This document shows, piece after piece, positions 33,181-45,347 of a DNA stretch of 64,000 nucleotides; within the stretch, counting starts at the first letter, position 1, and every line of letters begins with the position of its first letter. Source of the DNA: Acidobacteriota bacterium (lineage in GTDB: Bacteria > Acidobacteriota > UBA4820 > DSQY01); assembly GCA_049967655.1 (NCBI GenBank), contig JBMFSH010000009.1, positions 1-64,000 on the forward strand, given 5' to 3'. The position numbers and the translations under genes are program-made. Under the pieces are notes generated by a model that did not search any database, was not told the DNA's origin, and saw nothing but the letters and a program-made list of their open reading frames with translations.

Positions 33181-33439
33181 CGGGGCCGCTGGTTTAGAAC
33201 CCCGGCGGGCCTCGGCCGCGCGATTAGCGCGGGGCTTGAGTTCCGGTGCGGGCGCCCCCGAAGCGTGGCCTCCACCCGGTCTATCCTTCCTTTTCGTTGA
33301 ACGGAGAGGGTCCAAGCGCACCGCGGTCCCGCATTGATGGTCAACGGCAGGGATGGTATTCTGATGCGCGGGGACGAGGCATCTGGTGTTCCCGGACTTG
33401 GCGATGGTCACCCCGTACCCCGTCAAGGGAGGTGATCCC

Positions 33440-34273
33440 ATGACCGCCGGATCCACGCCCATCCGGGTCCCGACCGTGGCCGGAGCCTTCTACCCCGCCC
33501 ACCCCCTTCAACTCAAGACCACCGTGGAGCGCTTCCTCGTGAGGACGACCGATCCCGTAGCGGCCACGGCCCTCATCGTGCCCCACGCCGGCTACATCTA
33601 CAGCGGCGCGACGGCGGGCAAGACTTACGCCGCCGTGGACCTGCCCCGGCGCCTCTTCGTGCTGTGCCCGAACCATACGGGGATGGGCAGTCCCCTCTCC
33701 TGCTGGTCCCGGGGCGCCTGGGCGACGCCCCTCGGCGAGGCCCCCGTGGACGAGGAGCTGGCGGCGCTCCTGATGGCCTCCGACCCCCTCGTCCAGCACG
33801 ACGAACTGGCGCACCGCCGCGAGCACGCCGTCGAGGTCCAACTCCCCTTCCTCCAGGTCTACCTGGGAAGCTTTTCCTTTGTGCCCGTCGTGGTGGGCAC
33901 CCAGGACTTCGAGCAGCTCGAGGCGCTCGGCCGCGCCCTGGCCAAGGCCGCCGAGGCCGTGAACCCCACCGCCGCCATCGTCGTCTCCAGTGACATGAAC
34001 CACTACGAAAGCGCCTCGGTCAACAGGCGGAAGGACCAGCAGGCCCTGGATGCCATACTTAGCCTGGATCCGGTCGCGCTGTATCGGGTTGTGCACCAGC
34101 ACCACATCACCATGTGCGGCTATGCCCCGGCGGTCAGCGCCCTGGTGGCGGTCCACCTACTCGGAGCGGACCGCGCCGAAGTCGTGGAGTACACCCACTC
34201 GGGCCAGATCACGGGCGACGACGCCGAGGTGGTCTCCTACGCGGGAGTCCGAATGTATAAGGAGCCGGCGTGA
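33440..34273 (+). CDS. amrB: AmmeMemoRadiSam system protein B (MEMO1 family)
   Basis: VAGAFYP, VPHAGYIYSG, PNHTG, WATPLG, EHAVEVQLPFLQ, SSDMNHY, MCG and VVSYA. Confidence 0.9.
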   Translation: MTAGSTPIRVPTVAGAFYPAHPLQLKTTVERFLVRTTDPVAATALIVPHAGYIYSGATAGKTYAAVDLPRRLFVLCPNHTGMGSPLSCWSRGAWATPLGEAPVDEELAALLMASDPLVQHDELAHRREHAVEVQLPFLQVYLGSFSFVPVVVGTQDFEQLEALGRALAKAAEAVNPTAAIVVSSDMNHYESASVNRRKDQQALDAILSLDPVALYRVVHQHHITMCGYAPAVSALVAVHLLGADRAEVVEYTHSGQITGDDAEVVSYAGVRMYKEPA

Positions 34274-36462
34274 GGGGTCGGCTTTGGCTCTGCCTCCTGG
34301 CCATGGCCGCCCTGCCGGCGGCGGCCCAGATCAACCCGATTCCTTGGCACCCCAAGCCGGTTCCCCCTCCGGCTTCTGCCAAGGCCAAATCGGGCCATCC
34401 CGCCACTCCGGCCGCGCCGCCCAAGTTTCACATGACTTTTGACAAAATCACGACGGTGGCACCAGGCGTTTACCTCGCCGAAGGGAATGTCAAATTCACC
34501 TACCAGGACATGCTGCTCACGGCCGATTCGGTCACGTACGATACGAACAAGGGGACGCTATGGGCCACCGGCAAGGTGGCCGTGGACTTCCAGGACTTCA
34601 CCGTCTCGGGAAGCGAGCTGACCTACGACCTGAACACGGGCAAGGGCTCCCTGATGGACGCCTACGGGGTCCAGAAGGATGGAGAATTCACGGTATACGG
34701 GAAGGAGATCCGCAAGATCGGCGAGGGCTGGTTCGAGGTCATTCACGGAACCTTCACCTCTTGTGCGGCGGCCGTCCCTCCCTGGAGCATCAAGGTCAGC
34801 CACGCCAAGTTCCACGTGGACCACTACGCCTTCCTGACCAACCCCCGTTTCCACGTGCGCCAGGCGCCCACCCTCTATCTTCCCTATCTCGTCTGGCCCA
34901 CCAAACCCGCGCGATCCACGGGCCTTCTGATCCCCGAGGTCGGAAACTCCAGCAACCAGGGGTTCACGGTGAACAACGCCTTCTTCATCGCCCCCGCGGA
35001 CTGGTGGGACGACACGGTGTACGTGGATCACTACAGCAGGGAGGGCTGGGGGCTTGGTGAGGAGTTCCGGTACGTGCCCTCCACCGACACCTACGGCTGG
35101 TTCCACGGCTATTACATCCGGCAGAACAGCGACGGCCAAAAGCGGTGGGACTTCTCCTGGGCCCACATGCAGAACTTTCGGCACGGCTGGTATTTCATGG
35201 CGAACATCAACCTCCTCTCGGACATCAACTTCTTCCGGGACTACCAGCGGGACTACACGCTGAGCACCCTCTCGGGCCTCGATTCCAGCCTCTACCTGGT
35301 TCGCAACTGGGGCCCCTACTCCCTGACCTTCAAGGCCGAGCGCCAGAATCAGTATTTCACCGAGGGGCAGGACCTCGTTCAACGGACCCAGCCTGGGGTG
35401 GAGTGGCGATCCAGCCTCCATCCCCTGGTGGGCGACCTGTACTGGGGGTTCGAGACCTCCGCGGACCTGTTCCACAAGGAGTGGGCCCAGTACACTCCCA
35501 CCACCCAGAAATTCTCCGTGGGCTACAACCGCCTGGACGTGCACCCCTATTTCGAACTTCCGCTCCACCCGACCCTCTGGCTGGACATCACCCCCCGGTT
35601 GGAGCTGAGGGTCACCCATTACTCCGAGAGCCAGGATCCCTCCACGCAGCAGTACGACGCCGGCCAGCTCTGGCGGAGCTACGCCCGGTTCTCGGTCGAC
35701 GTGGTGGGTCCCCGCTTCTACCGCCGGTATAAGAACTCCATGAAGCACGTCATCGAGCCCTACGTGACCTATAGCTACGTCTCCCCCGACGCCCACGCGC
35801 TGAGGGCCCCCATCTTCGACGAGGTGGACCAAGTGGGGCTCAACGTCAGCCAGGTGGAGTACGGCGTGCGGAACCGGGTCTACGGGCCCAAGGGTGACCT
35901 GCGCCTGGACAGCTCGCTCTACCAGGACTACAGCTTCAAGAGCGACCTGCTGACTGCGGGGCCCCGGCACAGCCGCCAGGGCCCGGTGACACTCCTCGTG
36001 CGCCTGTGGCCAACGGCCTCCTGGAGCTACGACCTCAGGCTGCGCTACAACAGCCTCACGCGGGCCCTGGACGGCCAATCGCTCTCCGTCACCTACCGTC
36101 CCAGAAAGAAGGAGAGCGACGACTTCATCCGCCTGACCTACCTGAAGTCCGGCACCCTCGGCGTCAGTCAGATCACCGATCTCACTCAGAACCCCCTCTC
36201 GAAGGAAATCCGGCTGGCCTCCGCCACGACCCTCGCGGACGGGAAAGTAAGCCTCAATCCCTCCCTGGAACGGGACCTCAAAAAGAAGGTCTGGCGCGAT
36301 AGGAGCCTCACCTTCTGGTACCACGGGAGCTGCTTCTCCCTGGGCTTCGAGGCGGGCAAGCGGACCATCGGGACCTTCACCGATTCCGAATACCGCTTCC
36401 TGGTGAGCCTCAAGGGGGTGGGCACCGTGGTGGACCTCTGGGGAGGAACGGGGACGTATTGA
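34270..36462 (+). CDS. lptD: LPS-assembly protein LptD
   Basis: Signal peptide, OstA-like N-domain, FTSC...PPW, RSTGLLIP, HVIEPYVTY and an aromatic-rich beta-barrel with a late Cys (SCFSL). Confidence 0.85.
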   Translation: MRGRLWLCLLAMAALPAAAQINPIPWHPKPVPPPASAKAKSGHPATPAAPPKFHMTFDKITTVAPGVYLAEGNVKFTYQDMLLTADSVTYDTNKGTLWATGKVAVDFQDFTVSGSELTYDLNTGKGSLMDAYGVQKDGEFTVYGKEIRKIGEGWFEVIHGTFTSCAAAVPPWSIKVSHAKFHVDHYAFLTNPRFHVRQAPTLYLPYLVWPTKPARSTGLLIPEVGNSSNQGFTVNNAFFIAPADWWDDTVYVDHYSREGWGLGEEFRYVPSTDTYGWFHGYYIRQNSDGQKRWDFSWAHMQNFRHGWYFMANINLLSDINFFRDYQRDYTLSTLSGLDSSLYLVRNWGPYSLTFKAERQNQYFTEGQDLVQRTQPGVEWRSSLHPLVGDLYWGFETSADLFHKEWAQYTPTTQKFSVGYNRLDVHPYFELPLHPTLWLDITPRLELRVTHYSESQDPSTQQYDAGQLWRSYARFSVDVVGPRFYRRYKNSMKHVIEPYVTYSYVSPDAHALRAPIFDEVDQVGLNVSQVEYGVRNRVYGPKGDLRLDSSLYQDYSFKSDLLTAGPRHSRQGPVTLLVRLWPTASWSYDLRLRYNSLTRALDGQSLSVTYRPRKKESDDFIRLTYLKSGTLGVSQITDLTQNPLSKEIRLASATTLADGKVSLNPSLERDLKKKVWRDRSLTFWYHGSCFSLGFEAGKRTIGTFTDSEYRFLVSLKGVGTVVDLWGGTGTY

Positions 36463-36562
36463 AAAGAGGGAAGGCGAAGCTGGGATCGGGGAAGGGGGAC
36501 TCTTGCGTTTCACCTCCCGCGTTTCACGTCTCACGTCTCGCTTTCCCCTCCAGGCGACTGAC

Positions 36563-38113
36563 ATGAACGCGGACACCTCCCGGGAAATCATCCGCAAGTT
36601 TCTGCACATGGCCATGGGCCTTTTCGCCTTCGCCCTGCACTGGCTCTCTCCCTGGCAGGCGGCGCTCTGCGCCCTGGCAGCCCTGGGCCACAACCTCTGG
36701 CTTTTCCCCCACTACGGAGGAAGGAGTCTGGAGCGTCCGCAGGAGAAAGCCCGCGGCTACTCGGGCATGATCGGATACCCGGCCATCGTCCTCGCGCTCT
36801 GCCTTCTCCTCCCCGCCTCAGCCGCGGGCCTGGATCCGGTGCGCCAGGCCTCCGGCGCGGAACCCGCTAACGTGCTCTGGGCCGCCGCCGGGGCGTGGGG
36901 CCTACTGGCCTTCGGAGACGCCTTCGCCGCGCTTTTCGGCCTCGGCCTGAGGGGCCCCGCGCTCCCTTGGAACCCGCGAAAACGGTGGACGGGGTTGCTC
37001 GGGTTCATCCTCGTCGGAGCGCCCGCAGCCTTCGCCCTGGCCTACTTCAGCGCTTACGGCGATCTCAGGGTCTCGGGACCGGCCCTGGTCGGGCTGGGCG
37101 GCGCATGCCTTTTGGCCGCGCTGGTGGGCGGCCTGGTGGAGTCTCTCCCAGACCAGATCGACGATAACCTCACGGTCCCCCTGGCGGCGGGCCTTGTCCT
37201 CCTCCTGTTCGCGCGTTTTCCGTGGGGAGAGCTGCTTCACGGACGGACCGTGCCCGGCGCGGTCGGCGCGCCGTCGGTCTGGGGGCCGCCCCTCCTGCTG
37301 CTCCTGCTCGTGAACGCGGCGCTGGCCACCGTGGCCTGGTACCGCCGATGGGTAACGGCCGCGTCCGCCTGGATGGGCGCTTTCTGGGGCGCCCTCGTGG
37401 CCGTGGGGCTGGGCTGGGAGGGCTACGGATTCCTCCTCCTCTTTTATCTCCTGGCTAACGGCAGCACCTACGTGGGTCTCGGCCGCAAGCGGGCTCTGGG
37501 CATCGCCGAGAGCGACGGCGGCCGCAGAGGTGTGCCGTCGGTCTTTTCCAAGGGGCTCTTTCCGGCCCTGTTCGCGCTGGTGTCCCCCGCGGCTTTCGTG
37601 GCCAGCCTGGCTGCCTATGCCGCCGACACGGTGGCCTCGGAGGTCGGGAAGCTGAGCCGGGGCAGGACCCTTCTTCTCTGGTCCCGCCGTAGCTCCAAGG
37701 CCGGAGAACCGGGCGGTGTGAGCCTGGCCGGCACCGCCTCCGGCCTCGCCGCCGCGGGCCTCTTCTGCGGCGCCTTTCTGGCGGTGCTGATGCTGCAGCA
37801 CCGGCTCTACGGGACGGCCCTCCCCCGATTTCAGACCGCCTTTCTGAGGGCCGACCTGATCCGCTTCGGCTTTCCCACGGGATGGGCGCAGTTCACCCGC
37901 TGGATGCCCCTCGCCGCCCTCCTGCTCTTCGTTTCGGTGGCCATCGTCTTCTTCCTCGAATCGGTGCTGAACGAGACCGTCGCAGCCCGCGGCTGGTTTC
38001 CCAAGCCCATCATCCATCTGCTCACGGGCGCGCTGGCCGGCCTCCTGCCCTTTCTACTCGCCACCGTCCTGAGCCGTCCTTCAGACATCCTGGCGCTATG
38101 GGCGGCCCGATGA
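36563..38113 (+). CDS. Phytol/dolichol-kinase-like + DUF92 (TMEM19/VTE6-like) fusion membrane protein
   Basis: N-half has RKFLH, FGDAFAALFG, KRWTG and ESLPDQIDDNLTVP. C-half has RRGVPSVFSKG, ADTVASEVG and PGGVSLAGT. Confidence 0.8.
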   Translation: MNADTSREIIRKFLHMAMGLFAFALHWLSPWQAALCALAALGHNLWLFPHYGGRSLERPQEKARGYSGMIGYPAIVLALCLLLPASAAGLDPVRQASGAEPANVLWAAAGAWGLLAFGDAFAALFGLGLRGPALPWNPRKRWTGLLGFILVGAPAAFALAYFSAYGDLRVSGPALVGLGGACLLAALVGGLVESLPDQIDDNLTVPLAAGLVLLLFARFPWGELLHGRTVPGAVGAPSVWGPPLLLLLLVNAALATVAWYRRWVTAASAWMGAFWGALVAVGLGWEGYGFLLLFYLLANGSTYVGLGRKRALGIAESDGGRRGVPSVFSKGLFPALFALVSPAAFVASLAAYAADTVASEVGKLSRGRTLLLWSRRSSKAGEPGGVSLAGTASGLAAAGLFCGAFLAVLMLQHRLYGTALPRFQTAFLRADLIRFGFPTGWAQFTRWMPLAALLLFVSVAIVFFLESVLNETVAARGWFPKPIIHLLTGALAGLLPFLLATVLSRPSDILALWAAR

Positions 38114-39084
38114 GGTGGAAGCCCTGGATCGCCCTGATCCGGCCCTTCACCCTCGTGCCGCCGCTGCTCGGCATCCTGTCCGGCTCGGCCTGCGCCTACG
38201 GCTCGGCCCACAATCCGTACGCGTCGTTCACGTGGGAGCTTTTCGCGACCCTGCTCCTGGGCTCCTTCTGCGCCTCCCTCATGAACGCGGCCTCCAACAT
38301 CATCAACCAGGTCTACGACCTCGACATCGATAGGATCAACAAGCCCTCGCGGCCCCTCTGCACCGGCGAGGTAACGCCGAGGAGCGCGCTGGTCGCGTCG
38401 TGGTGCATGTACGTGCTCTCGCTCGCGCCCATCTGGTGGGTCGTGCCCCCTCCCTACGACCAGGGGCTGCTGGCCAGGATGCGGGCACCGTGGCAGGCCC
38501 ACGCCTGCTTCTGGATCTACCTGGGGGGGCTTCTGTGCACCTTCATCTACTCCTCGCCGCGCCTGGGCCGCACCAAGCGGTTCGGCGTCTGGGCCAACGT
38601 CACCATCGCCGCGGCGCGCGGGGAGCTGCTCAAGGTCGCGGGGTGGGCCATGGTGGCCACCGTGAGCCTCTGGGAGCCGTGGTATCTCGGCCTAGTCTTC
38701 TTCCTGTTTCTTCTGGGAGCCACGTCCACGAAGGACTTCAGCGACATGGAGGGAGACCGCCTGGGCGGCTGCCGGACCCTGCCGATCACCTATGGGCCCC
38801 GCAAGGCCGCCTGGATGATCGCCCCGTCCTTCGTGCTGCCCTGGCTGCTATTTCCCCTGGGCCTCCTTCTGCCGGCCCCCTCGGGCGGGCGCCTCCTGAC
38901 CGGGAACCCCCTCCTGCTCACCCTTCTGGGTGCGGCGCTCGTGCTCTGGGGAAGCCGCACCGTTTGGCCTCTTCTGCGCAATCCCGAAGAGCTGGCCTAC
39001 ACCGAGAACCACCCCTCCTGGACGGAGATGTACGGCATGATGATGGCCGCGCAGGTGGGGCTCGCCGCGGCCTACCTCCTGTAA
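38110..39084 (+). CDS. UbiA-family prenyltransferase
   Basis: LIRPFT, NQVYDLDIDRINKPSRPL, YS.P..K and KDFSDMEGDRLGGCRTLP. ATGA overlap with the upstream gene. Confidence 0.9.
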   Translation: MRWKPWIALIRPFTLVPPLLGILSGSACAYGSAHNPYASFTWELFATLLLGSFCASLMNAASNIINQVYDLDIDRINKPSRPLCTGEVTPRSALVASWCMYVLSLAPIWWVVPPPYDQGLLARMRAPWQAHACFWIYLGGLLCTFIYSSPRLGRTKRFGVWANVTIAAARGELLKVAGWAMVATVSLWEPWYLGLVFFLFLLGATSTKDFSDMEGDRLGGCRTLPITYGPRKAAWMIAPSFVLPWLLFPLGLLLPAPSGGRLLTGNPLLLTLLGAALVLWGSRTVWPLLRNPEELAYTENHPSWTEMYGMMMAAQVGLAAAYLL

Positions 39085-39352: not shown

Positions 39353-39805
39353 ATGCCCGAATCGAACGGCAAACCATCGAGAGGCGGCCTCTTCTGGCTC
39401 GGAGTCGCGGCGGCCGTGGTGCTGCCCGCCGCCCTGAGCCTGATCTTCTGGGGCACCACGCCGGCGGTGGGAGGTTGGTCCCAGGTCGGGGTCTCCCCGT
39501 CCGAGTCATCCGCGGGACTGGACTATTCGCAGAACGGGCGCCTGCCCGTGGGCGCCGCCGCCACCAACGGCCGGTCCCTCTACCTCCAGAACTGCTCCTC
39601 GTGCCACGGGCCGACCCTCGCCGGCACCGGCACCATCCCCGCCCTGAAGCGGCCCAACTGGCCGTATTCCCAGGACCGCGATCTCCTGGTCAAGATCATC
39701 CACCAGGGGCGCGGCCTCACCATGCCCAGCTTCGACGGCAAGCTCTCCAACCAGCAGATCAGCGCCATCGCCGACTACATCCAGAGCGAAAACGGCGCCA
39801 AGTAG
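39353..39805 (+). CDS. Membrane-anchored mono-heme c-type cytochrome
   Basis: N-terminal TM helix, CSSCH heme motif and distal Met (TMPSF). AAGGAG RBS. Confidence 0.88.
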   Translation: MPESNGKPSRGGLFWLGVAAAVVLPAALSLIFWGTTPAVGGWSQVGVSPSESSAGLDYSQNGRLPVGAAATNGRSLYLQNCSSCHGPTLAGTGTIPALKRPNWPYSQDRDLLVKIIHQGRGLTMPSFDGKLSNQQISAIADYIQSENGAK

Positions 39806-43391: not shown

Positions 43392-43620
43392 GCGGAGTGG
43401 GAAGTGAGGCGTGAGGAGTAAGGAGTAAGGAGTAAAGAGTGAGGAGTAAGGTGTGAGAGGCGGAGAGGGCTGTAGGAAACCTCTCCAGAGGCCGATGCGC
43501 CGTGCCGCCTCCCCGCTCGCGCTCTGGAGGGCGCTCCCCCATCGGAGGAAATTCCATCGCGCAATTTGGGCCTTTCGCTTCCCTTGCTTTCTTGGTGTCC
43601 TGGTGTCTAGGTGGTGAATC
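43392..43620 (-). repeat. Composite intergenic repeat, copy 2 (inverted relative to 27771-28030)
   Basis: On the minus strand: gattcaccacctagacaccaggacaccaag, then a REP doublet (43470-43540), then a heptamer array that reads gtgagga/gtaagga x8 on the plus strand. Confidence 0.7.
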
Positions 43621-43709
43621 TGTTCTCTCCCTTTTCCGCCCTTCCCCCCGGATTTTGGTTATACTCTCCCTGCCGCCGTGGATTTGGCGTGCGGTTCGGG
43701 GGCAAAACC

Positions 43710-45347
43710 ATGGGCAGGCGTTTCACCGTCCTCTTCGCGGATGACGACCTCGGGGCCTACCGGCGCGAGCTGGAGCTGTATTTCGCCGTGGCCGAGCCCC
43801 AATGGGACCTCCGCTTCGCGACCAGCCTGAAGGAGGCCCTGGCCTACCTCTCCGCCGAGCGCGTGGACGCGGTGGTGCTGGACGTGGAGCTGACGCCGGG
43901 CGGCAAGGAGGGCATCCAGCTCCTGGTCCACCTGCGGCGCTACCAGGCCAATACCCCCATCATCGTGCTCACGGATGTCTCCGACGCCCGCGTGGTCCGG
44001 GATGCCTTCCTCTCCGAAACGCTGACGGAGGACTTCCGGCGCCAGGAGGTGGACCCCGACGGGTTCCTCTTCAAGGAGGAGATCCTCGCCAACCGGCGCT
44101 ACGACATCCTTCACTGGGAGCTATCCAGGGGCCTCCACCATTACGGACGGGTGGCCAACCCAAGGGGTATCCTCGTGACGCACGGCACGGACACCATGGC
44201 CTGGGGGCTCTGCTACCTGCGGTACGCGCTGAAAAACCTCACGGCCAACGTGGCGGTGACGGGCTCCCAGGTCCCGCTGGAGGGCTACTACTCCATCTCC
44301 GACGCGCTCGGCAACCTCAAGACATCCATCTACCTTCTGACCCGCCTGCGCCCCGCACACCTCTTCGCGGTCTTCAACAACGGGCAGAGCATCTTCTCGG
44401 GGAGGCTCACCAAGTACCGGAAGTGGCACACCGACGCCTTCGACGGCCGGGTGGCCGCCAGCGCCGGCCCCGAGGGCGTCCACACGCTCCGCAAGGACTG
44501 GGTGATCATCCCCTACGAAGACCAGCGGCTGGAGGAGCTCCACCTGGTACGCACGGGCGGCACCATCGAATCCCAGCGGGACTCCCAGGCCGAGGGGGCC
44601 CTCAAGCCCACCGGCGACTTTGTCTGGAAGTACCTGAACGACGCCCTCTCCGAGTTTTTCGCCACGGCGGTGCGTCACGATCTGTTCGCGCTCGACTCCT
44701 CCAACATGTCTTTCGAGGAGTGGGCCGGCGTGGCCGGGGAGATCGAGCGGATCGGCGTGGCCACCGCCGACACGCGATTCGACCTTTCGGTCAAGCCGGT
44801 CTACGCCAACCCCCTCTTCACCACCGAGGACTACCGCCGCCAGTTCTCGGCCTGCGGGCGCGGCGCCATCTTCGCGGGCTACGGGGGAGGCAACGCCAAC
44901 ACCTTTGAGCAGAGCTTCCGCTCCGTCCTTCCGGCCCTTCGGGAAGCCGTTAAGGCAGGCACCTTGGTGGGGATCACCTCCCAGGTGCCCCTGGAACCCT
45001 ACGACGCCGACTACGACGCCGGCCTGAACCTGCTGGAGGCGGGGGGGGTTCCGTGCGGCGACCTTCCCATGGCAGACGCTCAGGTCAAACTGAGCTACAT
45101 CCTGGGCCATCCCGAGGAGCTTCGGACTGCGGCTGCGGAGTCGGGGCTGCCGGAGGCTCTTCTCGTGACCGCCGGGTTCCTCTCCGGCGTGAGCATGCGA
45201 CGCGCCCTGGGCATGCAGACCTTCATCAAGCTCAAGGAGAGCCAGGGCATGCCGCTGCGCCTTCTTCCCGACGACCCCTTCGTCTCCAAGCCCTTCGATG
45301 TGGGATTGCGGGCCGTGGTGGAGGCCTGCGCCACCTGCCCGCGCTGA
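43710..45347 (+). CDS. Response-regulator receiver domain fused to a rearranged (permuted) type I asparaginase/glutaminase
   Basis: REC motifs: FADDD, VVLD, VLT and FLFK. Asparaginase motifs occur in the order HGTDT, TGSQ, SDA..NL, TK...DAF, then TGGTI, DSSNM, then the C-domain GYGGGN, TSQ and DL..ADA.VKLSYILG. Confidence 0.85.
   Translation: MGRRFTVLFADDDLGAYRRELELYFAVAEPQWDLRFATSLKEALAYLSAERVDAVVLDVELTPGGKEGIQLLVHLRRYQANTPIIVLTDVSDARVVRDAFLSETLTEDFRRQEVDPDGFLFKEEILANRRYDILHWELSRGLHHYGRVANPRGILVTHGTDTMAWGLCYLRYALKNLTANVAVTGSQVPLEGYYSISDALGNLKTSIYLLTRLRPAHLFAVFNNGQSIFSGRLTKYRKWHTDAFDGRVAASAGPEGVHTLRKDWVIIPYEDQRLEELHLVRTGGTIESQRDSQAEGALKPTGDFVWKYLNDALSEFFATAVRHDLFALDSSNMSFEEWAGVAGEIERIGVATADTRFDLSVKPVYANPLFTTEDYRRQFSACGRGAIFAGYGGGNANTFEQSFRSVLPALREAVKAGTLVGITSQVPLEPYDADYDAGLNLLEAGGVPCGDLPMADAQVKLSYILGHPEELRTAAAESGLPEALLVTAGFLSGVSMRRALGMQTFIKLKESQGMPLRLLPDDPFVSKPFDVGLRAVVEACATCPR

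Follow-up and report, generated by a model that had tools for sequence, protein, structure and literature searches.

The kinase-like/DUF92 fusion and its paired UbiA gene

The window analysed here, i.e. the first 64,000 nucleotides of contig JBMFSH010000009.1 from an Acidobacteriota genome (99.3 % complete, with nearest relatives carrying Acidobacteriota titles), harbours two overlapping and intact open reading frames (ORFs) downstream of lptD (Table 1). The first encodes a membrane protein, P0001, in which a phytol/dolichol-kinase-like half is joined to a DUF92 half, and the second encodes P0002, a prenyltransferase of the UbiA superfamily. The original prediction had interpreted this pair as a two-gene pathway that activates a free isoprenoid alcohol and transfers it to an acceptor; the fusion, the ATGA overlap, the named motifs and the position relative to lptD were all found where it had placed them. 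We treat lptD as neighbouring context, which does not imply a role in the pathway.

The C-terminal half of P0001 is a member of DUF92/COG1836, as it matches Pfam PF01940 with 99.7 bits against a cut-off of 27.5 (E 2e-28, aa 250-412) and its acidic residues D355 and E360 are invariant, while TIGR00297 gave 86 bits on this half, below its cut-off of 206. Among 66 orthologous fusions, D119, E193 and D201 of the N-terminal half and R322, D355, T356 and E360 of the DUF92 half are found in all 66. The RKxxH, GD and DN motifs of the N-terminal half, which we take to be those of the VTE5/Sec59 kinases, are likewise conserved, but the kinase identity that the prediction had given this half is weaker than it implied: the Pfam scan returned no match for it in this protein, CTP_transf_1 was matched in 8 of the 66 fusions (best E 9e-7), and the alignment to the genome's own CdsA-family protein was weak, i.e. 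43 columns around GD...PWNPRK with an hhalign probability of 45 % (E 2e-4). A search of the PDB with the P0001 sequence was negative, and in the AlphaFold model (mean predicted local distance difference test, pLDDT, 88) the C-terminal half resembled CarS (Z 5.0) and CdsA (Z 4.7) within the noise. Both kinase activities of P0001 are predicted from sequence.

The architecture itself has precedents, as the prediction had stated for some prokaryotes. Archaeal fusions of COG0170 (Sec59-like) and COG1836, e.g. Mbar_A3310, share the two-domain arrangement and the conserved aspartates of both halves and have a predicted kinase role, and COG1836 has been linked to phytol-phosphate metabolism (PMC5898192; PMC3223725; PMC9782597). 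The archaeal fusion is, however, linked to uppS, whereas P0001 is linked to an orphan UbiA (PMC5898192). A biochemical test of either fusion type was not found in the literature. Work by vom Dorp in 2015 and by Seaver in 2014 is said to have described kinase-DUF92 fusions in green bacteria as well.

The pairing of the two genes, which the prediction had assumed to be conserved, proved to be so across 301 genomes spread over the Acidobacteriota (one of them, G052, is unpublished and shifts each count by one). UbiA orthologues occur in 96 and DUF92 genes in 131 of these genomes, with DUF92 present in 95 of the 96 genomes that carry the UbiA gene compared with 36 of the 205 that do not. DUF92 lies directly upstream of UbiA on the same strand in 63/96 genomes and within 3 kb in 69/96, while it is located far away or on another contig in 26. 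The pairing is thus far from chance. Moreover, DUF92 and UbiA are found on a single chain in P0174 and P0255, and in two of 13 fetched loci of the UbiA clade (L235 and L237, archaeal metagenome loci of the Thermoplasmata type) DUF92 lies directly downstream of the UbiA gene, so that the pairing spans both domains. The phototrophic acidobacterial genome G171 harbours the kinase-DUF92 fusion together with three (bacterio)chlorophyll synthases and lacks this UbiA. This is the known use of alcohol activation, and the genome serves as a useful control.

Neighbourhoods were clustered with genes called by a codon model. Frequent neighbours of the module are lptD and the rhamnose genes rmlA-rmlB-rmlD, although this context is absent at many loci, and a 181-aa protein without a Pfam match directly follows UbiA in 26 of 85 loci, mostly of Thermoanaerobaculia (e.g. 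L079:7007-7549). At seven further loci (L139, L140, L142, L146, L147, L156 and L157) a kinase-DUF92 gene occurs in a context of the short-chain dehydrogenase/reductase (SDR)/lptD type without an orthologue of this UbiA, and genome G039 contains two unassigned UbiA-family genes (L176, L184) as candidate substitutes.

A separate clade of UbiA prenyltransferases

P0002 is placed in the UbiA superfamily by Pfam (PF01040, E 3.5e-38), by its two Asp-rich motifs and by its fold, and its catalytic motifs are invariant in 38/38 orthologues. No NCBIfam model reached its cut-off on P0002, the scores being 106 of 269 bits for PRK12884, 98 of 313 and 83 of 212 for the ChlG/BchG/BchK models (the former being ChlG), 75 of 296 and 65 of 353 for the digeranylgeranylglyceryl phosphate synthase (DGGGPS) models NF009521 and NF009522, and 60 of 226 for the homogentisate phytyltransferase (HPT) model NF009525. 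ChlG- and DGGGPS-type models therefore score higher than HPT, and all 38 aligned orthologues match the same four model groups (PRK12884, ChlG, DGGGPS, HPT). Models for MenA, UbiA, MqnP and CtaB gave low scores, and P0002 did not group with any of these families. Chlorophyll synthase and DGGGPS were also the top PDB sequence matches, with chlorophyll synthase as the best single-sequence match (E 6e-16) and DGGGPS as the best match of the profile search. The P0002 model (pLDDT 93.7) is nearest in fold to DGGGPS (Z 26.0, root mean square deviation 3.9, 275 aligned), followed by other UbiA enzymes at Z 24.

The prediction had called the transferase HPT- or VTE2-like. With ten cyanobacterial rather than plant HPT/HST sequences as references, Q67 and R170-G171 of P0002 are common to HPT alone among the reference groups, and K78, KDxxD and W304 to HPT and one other group; the combination of NQxxDxxxD, RG and KDxxDxxGD that marks the HPT site is present. 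P0002 differs from HPT at N63, R81, N163, G178-W179, T207, N300-H301 and Y308. Motif 1 begins with ND in all five ChlG/BchG/BchK and all three DGGGPS references, in line with what the prediction had held for these families. Since the site residues match HPT and neither the model score nor the tree does, the term 'HPT-like' is fair for the active site but not for family membership.

The phylogenetic relationship was estimated with HPT (10 or 5 cyanobacterial sequences), ChlG/BchG/BchK (5), DGGGPS (3 haloarchaeal), MenA, MqnP, CtaB, EboC and DPPR-synthase as references, with supports from quick trees given as Shimodaira-Hasegawa-like approximate likelihood ratios (SH-aLRT). P0002 and its relatives form a clade of their own (SH-aLRT 94 for 86 rows in one tree and 99 for 18 rows in another), separate from the three haloarchaeal DGGGPS and from ChlG/BchK, MenA and MqnP, and HPT forms a closed clade (support 100) with P0002 outside it. 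The tree proposed with the prediction thus places P0002 apart from the ordinary MenA/UbiA/MqnP quinone enzymes. The clade groups loosely with ChlG and MenA (SH-aLRT 90), while the approximately unbiased (AU) test rejected neither a sister relationship to HPT (p 0.48) nor nesting within HPT (p 0.14), which means that the tree discriminates poorly between deep branching orders.

A profile search with the clade retrieved 302 representatives at E <= 1e-30. Thirty of these were looked up, of which most were without a taxon and the named ones belonged to Deltaproteobacteria, Planctomycetota, Terriglobia, Thermoplasmata and Promethearchaeota; databases label some clade members as DGGGP synthase. P0002 had one distant match in a viral collection, and the ESM Atlas search returned family names alone. 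No characterisation of this clade surfaced in the literature, with closed-access papers and bioRxiv supplements outside the scope. A giant-virus-like contig of 215 kb carries a UbiA-family gene (L234:5851-6789) that branches loosely near DGGGPS-like sequences, and a 43-kb contig of the viral collection (L225), probably host DNA, carries a cyanobacterial homogentisate phytyltransferase gene.

Partner genes in relatives and the surroundings of the locus

Three database proteins (P0125, P0238 and P0415) join an enzyme of the fatty-acid-desaturase family to a UbiA of this clade. The desaturase orthologues are sharply delimited (E <= 6e-82, with nothing between 6e-82 and 1e-20) and were found in 49 of the 301 genomes, all 49 of which carry the UbiA gene, compared with none of the 205 genomes without it. 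The association runs in the same direction in the six families that comprise genomes with as well as without the UbiA gene (f1, f22, f40, f43, f51 and f73). A desaturase-type enzyme therefore seems to belong to the same pathway in relatives, although the three fusions may go back to one event, as P0125 and P0238 group together. In 20 desaturase neighbourhoods the gene was unlinked and had no shared partner genes, which, together with its absence from the genome studied here, indicates an optional component. P0238 (715 aa) is a divergent, long-branched fusion nested among acidobacterial members, of eukaryotic style by impression alone; only a single further full-length relative with the fusion came to light. 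In the sister genome G001, the desaturase gene (L205:7830-8977) directly follows an oxidative-stress cluster of Fur, rubrerythrin, an FeS oxidoreductase and DUF3501, which also flanks it in L217 and L223; the equivalent site in the window's genome (contig C2, near 34087) cleanly lacks the gene. Two genes past the desaturase of the sister genome lies a YhhN-family (lysoplasmalogenase-like) gene (L205:9695-10333), seen in one of the 20 desaturase loci and also present on C2.

Other partners are more restricted. An HpnA/FLDH-like extended SDR directly precedes the fusion in relatives, its 21 sequences from the fetched loci forming one clade; as this SDR was not found here and was found in 1/19 of the host family (by one weak match), it was rejected as a required part. 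G038, G085 and G118 carry the gene pair together with both the desaturase and this SDR. UbiA is fused to an AlkP-type phosphodiesterase in P0134, P0218 and P0252, and AlkP is adjacent to UbiA in L118, L119 and L151. The AlkP family occurs in 125/301 genomes regardless of the module and was rejected as a core part; only one subclade is close, with 8 of its 10 genomes carrying this UbiA, and the link was treated as lineage-specific. One clade member directly follows a polyprenyl synthase in a radical-SAM/carbamoyltransferase cluster. This locus (L243:680-11159), which also contains B12/radical-SAM-type genes and a polysaccharide deacetylase, is possibly a meroterpenoid-like cluster.

Around the module itself, a promoter and terminator scan gave signals no better than chance. 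The spacer between lptD and the fusion (36503-36545) contains short tandem repeats of the TCACG(T/C)C type, and other short interspersed repeats occur genome-wide. Elsewhere in the window, an ORF at 43611-45347 appears from its translation to combine a response-regulator receiver domain with two asparaginase-like domains.

Table 1. Features of the module and its flanks, with positions in the window
Feature	Position	Strand	Basis or comment
MEMO1/AmmeMemoRadiSam protein B, overlapping the lptD start	33386..34273	+	Context confined to close relatives
lptD, upstream context	34270..36462	+	Close to the module in many, not all, relatives
P0001, membrane protein of 516 aa, phytol/dolichol-kinase-like N-terminal half and DUF92 (COG1836, VTE6-like) half	36563..38113	+	Domain scan, motifs, AlphaFold model
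P0001 N-terminal half (about aa 1-225), predicted CTP-dependent alcohol kinase	36563..37237	+	Motifs, CTP_transf_1 in orthologues, PMC5898192
RKFLH motif (P0001 aa 11-15)	36593-36607	+	
GD motif (P0001 aa 118-119)	36914-36919	+	
DDNLTVP motif (P0001 aa 200-206)	37160-37180	+	
DUF92 domain (P0001 aa 250-412), predicted second kinase	37310..37798	+	Pfam PF01940
DTxxSE in the DUF92 domain	37625-37642	+	
ATGA overlap of UbiA start and fusion stop	38110-38113	+	
P0002, orphan UbiA-superfamily prenyltransferase of 324 aa	38110..39084	+	Pfam, fold, tree, site residues
P0002 motif 1, NQxxDxxxD (NQVYDLDID, aa 66-74)	38305-38331	+	
P0002 RG	38617-38622	+	
P0002 motif 2, KDxxDxEGD (KDFSDMEGD, aa 208-216)	38731-38757	+	
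Mono-haem cytochrome c, downstream	39353..39805	+	Context confined to close relatives

A predicted alcohol-activation pathway and its alternatives

Our data mildly favour a pathway, deduced from sequence, in which an alcohol is activated in two steps and UbiA then transfers the chain from the resulting isoprenoid diphosphate to an anionic acceptor, yielding a membrane lipid. In this scheme, the N-terminal half of the fusion would phosphorylate a free long-chain alcohol with CTP, the DUF92 half would add the second phosphate to give the alcohol diphosphate, and UbiA would transfer the chain by means of Mg2+ and the two Asp-rich motifs. The acceptor would carry an anionic group bound by the invariant Arg170, and the product would be a lipid of the membrane or envelope. 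The alcohol would most likely be an isoprenoid of the farnesol or geranylgeraniol type, derived from turnover or from an aldehyde. Where present, the HpnA/FLDH-like reductase could supply the alcohol from the aldehyde, and the desaturase or hydroxylase, an O2-dependent enzyme, could modify what UbiA makes in roughly half of the hosts. The need for kinases is illustrated by ChlG, which takes diphosphorylated donors only, so that free alcohols have to be phosphorylated (PMC9066304). The isoprenoid donor is favoured because the characterised VTE5, FOLK and VTE6 act on prenols (PMC9782597), archaeal DUF92 genes adjoin uppS (PMC5898192), and one clade member adjoins a polyprenyl synthase.

Alcohol activation followed by transfer thus remains the best reading of the two genes, as the prediction had proposed, given the conserved pairing and the non-quinone UbiA, but neither product that it had suggested, i.e. 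a tocopherol-like compound or an archaeal ether lipid, was upheld. HppD was not found in the genome, the one weak match being methylmalonyl-CoA epimerase, nor was tocopherol cyclase (with a weak positive control, detected in 1/14 genomes). The geranylgeranylglyceryl phosphate (GGGP) synthase PcrB was found neither in this genome (0/1) nor in the phylum (0/301), with the control positive in 5/14. Tocopherol and archaeol are therefore unlikely products, and both routes were rejected. UbiA-family genes that pass the Pfam cut-off number just three in this genome, none of them a chlorophyll synthase; the MqnP-like and CtaB genes are separate from the module, and a geranylgeranyl-reductase-like gene scores just under its cut-off (157.4 versus 158.8).

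Several observations weigh against the two-kinase pathway. The genome has two polyprenyl synthases and can thus make prenyl diphosphates de novo, and neither its MqnP nor its CtaB is coupled to a kinase, so that a pure prenol salvage leaves the near-obligate link to DUF92 unexplained. The fold search with the P0001 model gave no match at E 0.001 or Z >= 8, although this is no evidence for a new fold. Neither of the two optional enzymes is found in this genome: no protein falls into the SDR clade, and at the position that matches the desaturase copy of the sister genome the flanks join directly. Related genomes in the sample are not independent, and the co-occurrence counts thus overstate the association. 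Finally, DUF92 occurs without this UbiA in 36 genomes, and G072 (L133) is the sole sampled UbiA genome in which no DUF92 was found. In G072, the UbiA gene lies beside an AraC regulator; its closeness to the family of the window is unusual (63 %) and perhaps due to transfer.

The donor may instead be a fatty alcohol, a reading that we consider unlikely. The reductase would then produce the alcohol, the fusion the alkyl diphosphate, the desaturase would tailor it (possibly to an allylic form), and UbiA would form an alkyl ether, ester or C-alkyl bond. Fatty alcohols lack a de novo source of the diphosphate, which would explain the near-obligate link to the kinases, and both the desaturase-UbiA fusions and the restriction of the desaturase to UbiA genomes (49/49) point in this direction. 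So does the bacteriochlorophyll c of Chloroflexus, which is mainly esterified with stearol (PMC9066304). No Ger/PlsA domain was found in this genome, and Ger is missing from most ether-making Acidobacteria (PMC13159169). On the other hand, 47 of the 96 UbiA genomes, including this one, have no desaturase, the three fusions may be a single event, and the best named NCBIfam match of the desaturase is an arginine hydroxylase (50 bits), leaving a fatty substrate unproven. The desaturase family also includes hydroxylases and carotenoid enzymes. No GGGPS-like enzyme for the first ether bond was found, and the polyprenyl synthase of L243 suggests an isoprenoid instead. Against the ether form, and provided that both species carry the module, the ether column of Table S21 in PMC13159169 gives a score of 0 for Thermoanaerobaculum aquaticum as well as Luteitalea pratensis. 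The extension of the fatty-alcohol reading to a cross-domain route to non-isoprenoid alkyl lipids, i.e. a fatty alcohol diphosphorylated by the fusion, acted upon by the desaturase and transferred by UbiA to a glycerol-phosphate-type or phenolic acceptor, appears less likely again.

It is similarly doubtful, and to a slightly greater degree, that the DUF92 half is a cytidylyltransferase or that the fusion serves to recycle a polyprenol carrier of sugars for the neighbouring lipopolysaccharide (LPS) and rhamnose genes, with UbiA acting on a polyprenyl phosphate instead of using a diphosphate donor. DUF92 is related to CdsA and CarS (PMC5898192), to which the weak C-terminal fold similarities also lead, and both the frequent lptD-rmlA-rmlB-rmlD context and the UbiA-AlkP fusions would fit; yet the genome has a separate CdsA-family gene, P0002 is far from the decaprenyl-phosphate phosphoribosyltransferases in tree and fold, the rml/lptD context is missing at many loci, the two genes lie apart in about a quarter of genomes, and AlkP genes are common whether or not the module is present. 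An HPT-like prenylation of homogentisate towards a tocopherol- or plastoquinone-like antioxidant is very improbable despite the shared site residues, the NQxxDxxxD motif of plant aromatic prenyltransferases (PMC7197402) and the unrejected sister and nested placements, considering the differing residues, the score of 60 bits against 226 and the failure to find HppD or, with its weak control, the cyclase in this genome; an acceptor that is another phenol would fall under the two-kinase pathway. There is equally little to be expected of a bacterial DGGGP synthase that makes an archaeal-type diether lipid. While DGGGPS is the best PDB fold and profile match, databases so name some members, and Thermoplasmata as well as one Promethearchaeota protein belong to the clade, PcrB/GGGPS was found in none of the 301 genomes searched, the DGGGPS models stay at 65-75 bits against cut-offs of 296-353, P0002 has NQ where the DGGGPS references have ND and RG where they have GG, and it is separate from the DGGGPS references (halobacterial only) in our trees. 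Least probable of all is an ordinary respiratory-quinone or haem prenyltransferase with an incidental pairing: the downstream cytochrome c gene of close relatives and the loose grouping with ChlG and MenA are outweighed by the separate MqnP-like and CtaB genes, the low model scores and the strongly conserved pairing.

The two-kinase pathway most closely resembles the phytol salvage of plants and cyanobacteria, in which VTE5/FOLK and VTE6 feed HPT, ChlG and phylloquinone synthesis. Its three types of enzyme and their logical order are matched here, as are the DUF92 domain and, in the transferase, the HPT-type NQ, RG and KDxxD residues. In contrast to these systems, the host is not a phototroph, the kinases are fused and operonic with the transferase, and HppD, cyclase or chlorophyll synthase were not found in its genome; from HPT (VTE2), P0002 differs by its separate clade and by its score below the HPT cut-off. 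With ChlG/BchG/BchK it shares the YSxPxxRxK loop and the best single-sequence PDB match, the same kinase fusion co-occurs with such enzymes in the phototrophic acidobacterium, and BchK demonstrates that fatty alcohols can be transferred. However, those enzymes carry ND and NDFK motifs, whereas P0002 has NQ and KDFSD, belongs to a separate clade and resides in a host without a chlorophyllide pathway. Archaeal DGGGP synthase is similar in fold (Z 26), in the KDxxDxxGD motif and in the NKPxRPL loop, but differs by its ND and GG and by its clade, and for bacterial homologues of DGGGPS that occur without GGGPS a different role is assumed (PMC7852524). EboC of the thallusin pathway, an orphan UbiA of bacteria whose acceptor for prenylation is an unusual hydroxylated aromatic acid (bioRxiv 10.64898/2026.05.21.724671), lies on a different tree branch, and no ebo genes were seen in the loci studied here.

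Taken together, the module is real, strongly conserved and built from known enzyme types, and it is unlikely to be a tocopherol, archaeol or quinone-pathway gene set; the phylum-wide counts, the comparison with the HPT site, the link to archaeal DUF92 and the desaturase partner are new here. The UbiA clade, which was present in 96 of the 301 Acidobacteriota genomes sampled and also turned up in archaea and further phyla of bacteria, points to a common membrane lipid, and the desaturase link makes the search for this lipid more specific. Since the genes for the second kinase of prenol salvage are, according to PMC9782597, known only from plants and cyanobacteria, P0001 offers a single-gene, non-photosynthetic model for this step. 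If the donor were a fatty alcohol, the module would bear on how Acidobacteria form ether lipids, and, should the alkyl-lipid reading be true, around a third of Acidobacteriota lineages would gain a route to ether or alkyl lipids that is independent of Ger, Elb and AGPS.

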